Below, piece by piece: positions 10,131 to 60,720 of a stretch of DNA of 64,000 nt (its first letter is position 1; each line of letters begins with the position of its first letter). Made by a program: the position numbers and the translations under genes. The DNA is from Amoebophrya sp. A120 (taxonomy: Eukaryota; Protista; Dinoflagellata). A model generated the notes under the pieces. It saw only the letters and a list, made by a program, of their open reading frames with translations. It had not been told where the DNA came from and searched no databases. The DNA is taken from the NCBI GenBank assembly GCA_905178155.1, contig CAJINV010000004.1:7818771-7882770 (forward strand), in the 5' to 3' direction.

Positions 10131-12054
10131 ATGGTTGTCCCCGCCTCCAACCTTCCCACGCACGCGGGCCCCGTTCCGCCCCCCAAAAACACCATCGACG
10201 AAGATTTTCGCCATGCGGAGAGCGGCTGGCGGTTCCGCGCGGTCCAGTCCCCCATGCTGGAATCGCAGGTGGCGGAGACTATCGCGAACGACGCGGGAAT
10301 CTGGCCCCACCCCTGCATGATATTCGACACGTTTTTGCAGGTATAGGAAATTCTAATTCATCCTGATGTTGGTGGTGTTTATCTGCAGAACATGAAAATC
10401 CAATTTTGAAAATTTCTGCACGCGTAGTTCTTCGCTGGGGAAATCGGCTCATGATGACTTTTGTTTTCAATCATACTTATGACTCTACATATCAATCACC
10501 ACAACTTCCAGGTTTACGATGCTGCCGACAACCTAGTTCTGGACATCAACACGCGCGACGCCTTACGCGGAACCCGTATGGATTTGAGACAGAAACAGGA
10601 GAGCACTGGCAGCAAAACAGAAACAACAAAGACAGCTGGTGTTCCTGAGTTAAAAGTTGTCGCGGAGTCCAGCCATTTGCTTTCCACCAAGGTCGTTTGC
10701 CAGCACGCCGAGAAGTGGGGGTCCAGCCGGGATTTGACCATGGCGAAACAGATCGAGACAGACACCGACTGGACTTTCTCTTCCACCTATTGCCCTACAG
10801 TGATGAATTTAAATTCTACGAAAGACTCCGACAGCCCAACCACAACAAACACCTACGAAACCGACGAGTCCCTCCCCCAATTTTCCGCGAACCAGTCTCT
10901 CCTGCCCATGGCGTTACTGACCCAGCAGCAAAATAACCCGATCGAGTTTTTCACCGCGATTACCTTTTACGAAGACGAATTGGACGACGAGGGGAGTGCG
11001 GCTTTCTCTTTGAAGATCCGGGTGCACAAGCACTTTTTTTTTCTATTACTGCAAAACGAGATCCGGGTGGACAACGTGCTGGCTCGGAAGGTGGAGACGA
11101 TATGGATTGCAAAAATGTCTGGGTCTGGAAAAGTGTAAACTTGTCATGCAGATTTTCCATGACCTCTGGAATGCAGATGCATGGGGTCTGGAATGCGGGA
11201 CTTAGCATGACAGAATCTGCGAGGTCTCTGCCATGCCTATCCTGCATGAGAAACTCCCTTCCAACTTGGTCAAAAGTGGGCAGCTTTTGGCTCTCATGCA
11301 ACACAGATTTTTGCATGCTTCAGATTTACCATGACAAGTTGCCGCCTTCCAGACCCAGACATTTTTGCATTTGATAGACGAGGTATTTCGGCAATTTGTG
11401 CTTCATGAACAAGGAAACGGGGAATAAATGGAACCGGGGGATCCGGCTCATGATGCCGGAAGGAGTTGTGCGGAAGTCTTCGACAGGTGGACAACTCGGT
11501 GAAAAGAACGAGTCGGAAGTTCTTGTTGAGCAAAGTCCAAATTATACCGTCGACACCAGCTGCTCGTCTCCGGCGAAGGAGGTTGAACAACAGCACTCTG
11601 TGATGCAACAAGACCGCATTCTGGAGCCAGGTTCTATCTTACGCGAGTGGAGCTACAGCGAGGTGTCGTTTCCGCAGCTCCGACAGCGGGGGGACCTGAA
11701 TTCCGCGGAGGAGATGGTTTTTTGCCTGCAGAAAGTGAACGAAAAGGATTTGATATGCATTGCAAATATGTCTGGGTCTGGAAGAAAGCAAACTTGTGAC
11801 CACGCGCATTTCACAACACATAAAAATCCGTCATGCAGAGGCAGCAAAAGCTGCCGACTTTCTCTCACCAAAATGGGGCATTTGTCATGCGGATTCGGCA
11901 TTGCGGAAGCTTCTCGAAACCTGTAATGCTAGGGCTTCCATGCCAGACCTTCTGTGTCATGCACAAGCAGCATGACTCTTCCAGGCCCAGACATATTTGC
12001 ATTTGATATTTGATTACAAGGGACGTGACGATATTCGACTGCAAGGCGGCATGA
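10131..12054 (+). CDS. TIPRL: TIP41/TIPRL-like PP2A regulator, 4 exons
   Basis: DWTFSSTY and FYEDELDDEG...KIRVHKHFFFLLL..IRVDNVLARKVET|RYF. One GT-AG intron 10341..10511 and two introners; stop at 12052-12054. Confidence 0.85.
11101..11376. mobile_element. Introner family A
   Basis: Family A TIRs; direct repeat GACGA/GACGA. Confidence 0.92.
11754..12008. mobile_element. Introner family A
   Basis: Family A TIRs; direct repeat TTTGA/TTTGA. Confidence 0.92.
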
Positions 12055-13088
12055 CTGATGAAATTATAGTACAGATTTGGAGTTCTTATAGTACAGATTT
12101 GTTTATCACTAGGACTAGCACGACGCCGACCCGACGCCCACCCGCTGAGTGAATTCTTGACGGCGACATCAGAAGACGATTGGTCTCGCTTACTTTTGAG
12201 CCGCTAGGGGTCGTAATATTGAGTGGTTAATACGAACGGGCTTCCCGCCTCATCAGCGACAACAACAGAAAAAAATATCATGCTCGCGTCAGAGTTAATT
12301 TGAAATGAGTATAACTTTGGCAGTTCGACGAGCGTTTTTTCTAGGCGCGTGCTTTTGTCCTCCTCTCGTCGCCGTGTTCATCAGCAACCGAAATGGATGA
12401 GAGCCAATTTTTATAATCAGTTTTTTCAGAAGATGCACGAGGTTCTTTTCAAGGTCACAACATCTTTCCAGTATAATATCCGGCCGTTGCGCTGGCGCGT
12501 TTCAGACCTATCTTTGGCTGGAGAATTTGAAAATGAACAAGCCAGAGTTCATGTTCCAGGTTAGTAGTGCACAGTCCTTTTTGCAAGAAAGCTGCTGCAG
12601 ATCATCTTCTTGACGCCATTTCTACAATTCCGTTCTTAGTACCCGTACCGGCGTGATTTGAAGACAAAATTTCTGATTCTGGCAAGAAGTTAGTTTGGAT
12701 TCCTGCTTCCACGGAGCTCCAGCTTCTCCATCGATGGGATGTAAGTAGCTCTTTCTGATGATCCTTTCTTTTCAGCGACCTTTATTTCCGGCCTTGATTC
12801 ATTCAGGCTGTTTTTAGAAAGAGTTAGCTAAAGAAGTTCCTGAAGTGGTCTTCACGGAGTACCCTGAGTTTATGATTTCCGCAGACAGTAGTTGTAAATC
12901 ATCTTTTACCATCAACATTTGTCTCCCATCGGCTTTTTAGGATAAAAGTTGATTTCGCACGACACAAAAATCCGTACAGCAAGTAGCAGGTAATTTCGAA
13001 GAACAAAATAAGTCGAATCTTGAACACTTCATGAGCGCTCCTTCCGAGTGGTTCTCCCGACGAACCATTTCTACCGGTCCTGCCGACG

Positions 13089-60200: not shown

Positions 60201-60720
60201 GCGAAAGTTTGGATTTGAGCGACAATTTTTTGTATGCAATGCAAAAGCATCGTACTCGTATAAATGCATCACAAATTTCTTTCGGTTTCCTCTGCGTGAG
60301 AAATGAAATTTGTAATGCGGATTTACCTGGACAAAGAAATTTGTAATGCATGATTGCAATTACTACGAGTACGATACTTTTGTACAGCATATTTTGGTGC
60401 ACAATGCGATTCAACTGGTGGAAAGGGTGGACATTGTGGTGGAGGAGCAGAAAGGAAGCAGGGTAGAAGAACTTGGTGCGTCTGCTGGGGTCACTGTCCC
60501 CTCGCACCATCAAAACACGAACCAGGAGGAGCAGATCTTCGGGGCGTTGGCGACGCGGGCGCAGCACGTCCGAGAACTGCTGTCTGAGAAGTTTGGGAAG
60601 AAGTTTGAGACCCTGGCCTGGACCGCGAACGCGCCCACGGTCGCGGACCATCTGGAAGATTGCGAGAACGACGACGACATGCCGCAGATTGTCGATCTGG
60701 ACCAACCGTACGCGTTTTGA
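57251..60720 (+). CDS. AAR2: AAR2 (U5 snRNP assembly factor), 7 exons
   Basis: [100 protein letters not shown]...DNFL. All six introns are introners. Confidence 0.9.
57400..57659. mobile_element. Introner family A
   Basis: Family A TIRs; direct repeat TGGCA. Confidence 0.92.
57890..58142. mobile_element. Introner family A
   Basis: Family A TIRs; direct repeat TGGGA. Confidence 0.92.
58212..58533. mobile_element. Introner family C
   Basis: Family C TIRs; direct repeat ACCAG. Confidence 0.92.
59153..59297. mobile_element. Introner family B
   Basis: Family B TIRs; degenerate direct repeat CATGA/CACTA. Confidence 0.88.
59850..60170. mobile_element. Introner family C (TAC start)
   Basis: Family C TIRs; direct repeat AGCAG. 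Confidence 0.9.
60233..60391. mobile_element. Introner family B
   Basis: Family B TIRs; direct repeat TTTTG. Confidence 0.92.

Follow-up and report, generated by a model that had tools for sequence, protein, structure and literature searches.

A helically spaced subterminal motif common to the introner families of Amoebophrya sp. A120 and its candidate role as a transposase-binding site

The 8-bp sequence TGT(C/G/A)ATGC, which a first-pass annotation had picked out in several families of inverted-repeat elements, is a genuine and prominent property of the already known introners of Amoebophrya sp. A120, apparently one not described before. We consider it probable, at roughly 0.6, that its full form, AYYTGTVWTGC (11 letters, from an iterated profile), is a subterminal double-stranded-DNA binding site of one transposase clade mobilising all the families. 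The binding-site reading draws on conservation in 21 of 21 families, site-like degeneracy and helical spacing, and a single transposase appears the likeliest binder.

The window (the whole 64-kb stretch analysed here) contains 201 exact matches to the 8-mer, counted on both strands, whereas the 100 shuffles used as null average 7.16 and never exceed 14, bearing out its recurrence across element families. An element finder blind to the motif, requiring only a TIR plus a TSD, returned 63 candidates; 5 without TAT..ATA ends were dropped and 8 were added by hand, for a total of 66 elements, 65 of them 145-327 bp long. Inside these 65 elements (15,983 bp) lie 196 of the 201 matches, or 12.3/kb; the remaining 48,017 bp of the window holds the other 5, or 0.10/kb, and ORF-like DNA holds 2 in 34,136 bp, in agreement with the earlier impression that the motif is rare in exons. 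At least one exact copy is found in 64 of the 66 elements and at least two in 58, with both orientations present in 43; the full motif occurs at about 4-5 sites per element (~4.5). It had been annotated over 11101-60391, where it does occur, but it also extends beyond that span, at 2279-2546 and 63424-63889. The elements are given below by group, with no strand assigned except where one is stated.

2279-2546, 11101-11376, 11754-12008, 14774-15037, 18078-18339, 18389-18641, 19249-19510, 19574-19825, 21256-21515, 21565-21817: group A (30 copies, 246-278 bp, inner TIR GTCTGGGTCTGG, 1-6 exact motifs each), copies 1-10
22478-22739, 23165-23426, 23783-24043, 25409-25666, 28472-28741, 31350-31601, 31657-31909, 33501-33753, 36458-36703, 41732-41995: group A, copies 11-20
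42637-42895, 45091-45336, 46763-47040, 48435-48702, 51077-51328, 52609-52887, 52965-53227, 57400-57659, 57890-58142, 63424-63686: group A, copies 21-30
27872-28193, 29485-29809, 55526-55852, 58212-58533 (without an exact motif), 59850-60170: group B, 5 copies, 321-327 bp, inner TIR TCCCCCCTCCCCATA
14570-14723, 16125-16274, 22281-22430, 32802-32948, 42375-42527, 56341-56491, 59153-59297, 60233-60391, 63740-63889: group C, 9 copies, 145-159 bp, inner TIR GTATCGTACTCGTA, outermost sites facing outward
15111-15319, 29858-30066, 30333-30548, 33206-33416, 35172-35384, 44452-44660, 45742-45970, 53674-53930: group D, 8 copies, 209-257 bp
37347-37623, 42035-42319, 44721-44999, 53298-53579: group E, 4 copies, 277-285 bp, inner TIR CGTCCCCAC
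35548-35799, 46459-46696, 55918-56143: group F, three different TIRs with related interiors
16330-16638, 27556-27822, 34368-34689, 36037-36191, 36757-36985, 55124-55449: diverged, unclustered elements, all bearing the motif
33543..33581, plus strand: example of a tandem motif pair, sites at 33543 and 33574, 31 bp apart, the first lying 43 bp inside the element, whose end is at 33501

At 51057-51525 an older element carries the group A copy 51077-51328 nested in its left TIR.

A scan of a second assembly, JACKZZ01, with the group A TIR yielded 152 loci (608 kb merged, a sample biased to group A) and 506 further elements, for 571 with those of the window in a combined 672 kb. Their ends read TAT[C/G]N6AAA and are flanked by a 5-bp target duplication; A stands at positions 11-13 in 0.88-0.93 of ends, in a sample rich in group A and with a finder that demanded TAT, and group F and family 10 deviate from the pattern. 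The TSD is a perfect 5 bp in 449 of 565 elements (the finder required 4 of 5 matching), and its length is confirmed by two paralogous loci in L005, one empty (9686-9770) and one occupied by a group A insertion (15172-15433), where the 5-mer is present once in the first and twice in the second. Short, bounded by TIRs and a TSD, without coding capacity and present in many copies, the elements have the properties of MITEs. Separately, 63 near-full-length copies (for example L114 295-546 and L012 6484-6632) escaped the TSD-requiring finder, and several of these match the consensus at more than 90% identity but lack a visible target duplication.

Most elements interrupt coding frames: of 505 junctions, 404 read through in a coding-like open frame once the element and 5 nt are removed and 399 once the element and 2 nt are, while other lengths give 239-258. 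One gene in the window illustrates both an insertion and an apparent derivative of one.

48435-48702, no strand assigned: group A element in an eIF4A-III gene, splitting helicase motif I (RDVIVQSQS / GTGKT), 5-bp TSD GTCCG
49790-50023, plus strand: relic intron of the same eIF4A-III gene, canonical GT-AG, group A interior, without TIRs, four strong motif sites

Taking out 48435-48702 with one TSD restores the eIF4A-III frame, and since the element sits inside motif I, its exact removal is required if the gene is functional. The intron at 49790-50023, which accounts for two of the five matches outside elements, has the appearance of an introner that became a canonical intron.

These properties are those of introners as described for A120, here compared from the consulted portions of the published accounts. 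The ~30,000 A120 introners have boundary direct repeats, are non-canonical introns spliced from RNA, and have inverted repeats that start with TAT, seven variable bases and then AAA, with a mean length of ~240 nt (PMC7789003; PMC12130899); how they move and how they are spliced were both posed as open questions (PMC7789003). The window elements share the TAT plus AAA ends, the boundary repeat and the interruption of coding sequence with restoration of frame, and the introner family lengths of 149, 208-214, 252-260, 278, 305 and 320 bp agree with elements here. Farhat and colleagues gave direct repeats of 3-5 nt, argued against general mobilisation by a transposase and found no transposase in A120 (PMC7789003, 2021). 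Gozashti and colleagues classed most A120 families as TIR DNA elements of unknown superfamily and listed one 808-bp TIR family, family 38, with Copia-integrase-like similarity and the annotation "5-bp TSD, TA/TA termini" (PMC12130899); our comparison took in all 58 A120 rows of their supplementary file 8, by description rather than by consensus sequence.

A description of AYYTGTVWTGC in print was sought in openly accessible text and not found there. The motif strings are absent from the searchable text of the PMC7789003 supplement, the examined portions of PMC7789003 and PMC12130899 make no mention of a shared internal motif or its spacing, a term search of the bioRxiv 2020.10.14.339549 main text and of PMC12166617 added nothing on it, and the relevant passages of the 5hmU paper PMC11572971 give no DNA motif.

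For tests of conservation, 483 of the 571 elements were placed in 21 families of at least 5 members, themselves falling into 9 groups; the 88 unclustered elements were set aside, and 85 of these carry at least one motif site. Divergence from consensus is 0.081 in the sites, 0.165 in the other interior sequence and 0.099 in the terminal 30 bp of the TIR. The sites are better conserved than the rest of the interior in every one of the 21 families (Wilcoxon p 1e-6), and a shift test within single families gives p<0.05 in 17. Position 4 behaves differently: it is as variable as background and changes among C, G and A, with only 7% of changes to T, a pattern that is that expected of a protein site under selection. 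Apparent resemblances to RBFOX (UGCAUG), ApiAP2 (TGCATGCA) and TALE (TGACA) sites cover only part of the motif.

Because the sites diverge at about half the rate of their neighbours in every family, with a fourth base that switches among three letters and avoids T, common ancestry alone, which the first-pass annotation had named as an outcome that would undo its idea, is insufficient. Descent from an ancestral common 32-bp repeat, of which the motif would be a functionless relic, could draw on the ends that the groups have in common and on some homology between them, but this twofold conservation refutes it unless mutation is locally biased so as to strike these very positions half as often; moreover, the spacers between paired sites vary in sequence from group to group but not in length. 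We regard it as the least probable of the readings considered. Scores of between-group relatedness, computed on sequence stripped of its TIRs and against a null that preserved the motifs, are mostly low, with links that persist, notably among families 11, 12 and 20, each with a different TIR. The families had been called unrelated, which is overstated, since all have TAT..ATA ends and a 5-bp target duplication, most have AAA at 11-13, and some with different TIRs have homologous interiors. The most fitting view is of a single old clade with common ends, in which case convergence need not be invoked; selection is nonetheless needed to maintain the motif.

The spacing of the sites is likewise maintained. 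Each of the 9 groups has same-direction tandem sites with a gap of 30-33 bp, and when every group is represented by a single consensus such gaps make up 18 of 35, where the null averages 2.3 (p 3e-4, corrected for the best window); the intervening sequences differ between groups and keep their length. Measured from the element end, the first inward-facing site is found at 33-34, 41-45 or 53-56 bp, and within group A one and the same TIR precedes a site at either 34 or 41-43 bp. Across three representative sets, these end-to-site distances give R(10.5) of 0.83-0.91, a best period of 10.5-10.7 and p 5e-4, although such estimates fit 10.5 and 11 alike and the groups, being related, are not fully independent points. 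Tail-to-tail pairs have a best period of 10.6-10.8 in the three sets, same-direction pairs peak at 10.3, 10.3 and 12.6, and head-to-head pairs peak at 15, the limit of the scan. Counted in helical turns, the sites stand 3, 4 or 5 from the end and 3 from one another: a motif repeated, conserved and at defined positions inside the ends, as in known subterminal repeats. Inverted copies just inside each TIR, the layout first described, prove to be the commonest and not a general one (37 of 65 elements in the window, 268 of 571 in all); others have direct copies or copies that face outward, and in group E all six consensus sites point the same way, with insertions in both orientations.

Families whose sites all point one way help to separate a DNA-level from an RNA-level reading. 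The first-pass annotation had offered, besides a transposase, a protein that marks these introns for splicing; in its single-stranded form, an RNA-binding protein would read the motif in the transcript. The open frames left when element and TSD are removed, at the 404 junctions counted above, accord with such a mark, and sites with UGUVAUGC on the transcript change slightly less than those in the other orientation (0.034 vs 0.041, p 0.02). A single-stranded RNA splicing element, however, requires a fixed orientation in the transcript, and in coding DNA the one-direction families are inserted in sense and antisense (8 and 12 copies in family 4, 7 and 8 in family 7, 6 and 13 in family 8, 5 and 1 in family 16), with no family showing an orientation bias at p<0.05, which argues against a mark of this kind; site direction is independent of transcription direction. 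The transcript strand lacks UGUVAUGC in 79 of 409 elements and GCAUBACA in 94 of 409, sites on either strand are conserved well beyond the background (0.08-0.09), helical phasing is unexpected for single-stranded RNA, and two TAT..ATA elements with 0-1 sites still excise into open frames. The small strand difference is probably due in part to a general mutation skew, which is seen in non-motif columns too: in elements in coding DNA, C>T and A>G exceed their complements on the transcript strand (p 0.009), which suggests a transcription-linked mutation bias. A single-stranded RNA mark is therefore disfavoured, and we hold it to be very unlikely; a DNA-level host mark on introns may exist. The idea of a common binding site, by comparison, gains support, as a prediction from sequence.

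The same families bear on whether inverted copies serve to lengthen a hairpin in RNA or DNA, maintained by pairing of its arms or by conversion from one arm to the other. Motif bases are indeed predicted to pair more than other interior bases (0.76 vs 0.59), but in families 4, 7 and 9 predicted motif-motif pairing is low (0.00-0.19) and motif conservation is unchanged; nor would pairing hold one sequence across groups, and the TIR stems show no significant excess of G.U (368 vs 333, p 0.2) when G.U is set against A.C as a test for an RNA stem. The one-direction families largely refute the hairpin, which we judge highly improbable; taken together, RNA-level and neutral readings are improbable.

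If the motif is instead the site of a transposase, the bound protein would lie on the same face of the helix as the cleavage end and help to build the end complex, and copies that retain sites and spacing would transpose more, so that the motif would outlast the divergence of inner TIRs and interiors that produces the "families". The enzyme would be DDE and integrase-like, to judge by the 5-bp TSD and by family 38 of Gozashti 2025, and removal of the intron would depend on features outside the motif, the ends and the TSD for example. The closest parallel is Emigrant/Lemi1, which likewise has several short sites inside the TIRs, direct or inverted and often asymmetric between the two ends; the Lemi1 protein binds the subterminal repeats of Emigrant in a manner that depends on their arrangement, and Sleeping Beauty, pogo, CACTA and hAT are cited there too for subterminal transposase-binding repeats (PMC1636448). 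In Emigrant and Sleeping Beauty the repeat is part of the TIR, whereas here the motif is unrelated to the TIR and common to groups with different TIRs, and its binding is predicted. Ginger2/Tdd elements resemble ours in their TIRs and in the 5-bp TSD of TDD-4 and TDD-5, but Ginger termini read TGTNR (PMC2836005), and identity with Ginger2/Tdd by termini was rejected on the TAT[C/G] ends found here. No coding element with a Gypsy-integrase-like transposase of the Ginger2/Tdd type was found among the scanned ORFs. The ends of Tn7 and Mu are comparable in their 5-bp TSD and multiple asymmetric transposase sites, and differ in being bacterial, in having TG..CA ends and in their longer sites.

Pfam families of transposases and integrases had no match among 28 ORFs of the window or among 106 ORFs scanned from the second assembly (289 were extracted, the 183 shorter ones being left out), and in the 672 kb, only a small fraction of a genome, no long element with a coding interior appears. 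Family TIR patterns had no match in viral contigs; a pattern of end plus tandem pair had 5 viral and 9 prokaryotic matches, none with a matching TIR and TSD, which were taken as chance.

Two long elements with other TIRs serve for comparison.

54115..55089, no strand assigned: TAT..ATA element, 975 bp, 5-bp TSD, different 50-bp TIR, no exact motif and one degenerate site; an internal control
L076 13016-13888: TAT..ATA element, 873 bp, other TIR, zero motif sites

The first has ORFs without a Pfam match and no relative within the 672 kb; the second repeats its own TIR word, AAAACCGTCTAC, in a central 140-bp palindrome. Other TIRs together with 0-1 sites, and in one case an element's own TIR word repeated inside it, are as expected if the sites are enzyme-specific. 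Both are among the elements that excise into open frames, neither junction lying in a verified conserved domain. An adjoining duplication of ~54 bp at L076 13016-13888 keeps the frame.

The motif lies outside the TIR and is common to groups with different inner TIRs, which could reflect several transposases plus a common host factor. Architectural co-factors of transposition are known elsewhere in IHF and HMGB1, and a host double-stranded-DNA-binding protein might act here in that capacity, or might bind in place, organising chromatin or flagging introns at the DNA level during transcription; we consider this the chief alternative, possible but doubtful. Profile matches outside the homology mask number 163 against ~21 (19-23 in shuffles), an 8-fold excess, and 11 of 32 outside clusters hold pairs 31-35 bp apart, several of them in apparent GT-AG introns; 9 of these 11 match no family profile and 2 are detectable relics. 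Against this, simulated neutral decay to ~20% divergence agrees with observation in pairs per site (0.058 against 0.056), and the outside matches can accordingly be explained as relics of unsampled families; relics of known families would be detectable, so the outside pairs stem from unsampled families or are selected in place. The relic intron at 49790-50023 lost its TIRs and kept its sites, as a host factor would predict; the TIR-less relics considered include four with both ends missing. The two motif-poor elements, which also leave open frames, do not fit a flag on introns.

Change after insertion was gauged with a TSD clock of ~3.5% per copy, obtained from third-position TSD mismatches. 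Private change at G7 is 1.6%, below the clock, as would be expected of a site read in place; mean private change in the sites is 3.3-3.8%, near the clock, and several TIR positions fall below it as G7 does. Older copies, contrasted by TSD mismatch, show extra motif change of 0.008 (CI -0.002 to 0.018), and the motif-to-neighbour divergence ratio is 0.42-0.51 at all pair distances. The ratio is 0.46 in non-coding (n=34) and 0.44 in coding DNA (n=351), by crude classes, a similarity that may tell against a host factor. An insertion shared between loci, sought as a direct test of post-insertion change, was not found. Finally, U1 snRNA was not detected in A120, according to the consulted portions of PMC7789003. 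A reading in keeping with that finding, though an improbable one, is that a DNA-binding protein, perhaps a transposase domain that has been domesticated, recognises the phased array in place, flags tens of thousands of non-canonical introns on the chromosome and so helps to replace the missing U1 step, the array being kept after TIR loss and GT-AG conversion. Conservation of the site after insertion would point to a host role, at the DNA level, in handling non-canonical introns.

Under the preferred reading of a transposase site, one helically phased common site points to a single mobilising system behind many families. The motif could serve as bait for that system, as a DNA probe with dead mutants at G7 and C8 and with spacing controls, and the motif array plus the ends would form a signature by which to recognise an autonomous element.

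Other repeats in the window were noted in passing. A GC-rich repeat at 26463-27178, with an internal 140-bp duplication and ~80% identity to copies at L058 and L059, has no Pfam match; a short tandem array based on TATCGATTGACATTTTGAAAG, spotted by eye, lies at 40330-40490; and a 109-bp repeat of upstream regions occurs at 38028-38136 and 40885-40993 with 88% identity. The rest of the window is dense in elements, with the exception of 3877-9546, a DEAD_2/Helicase_C_2 helicase frame of 1889 codons that is free of both elements and introns.
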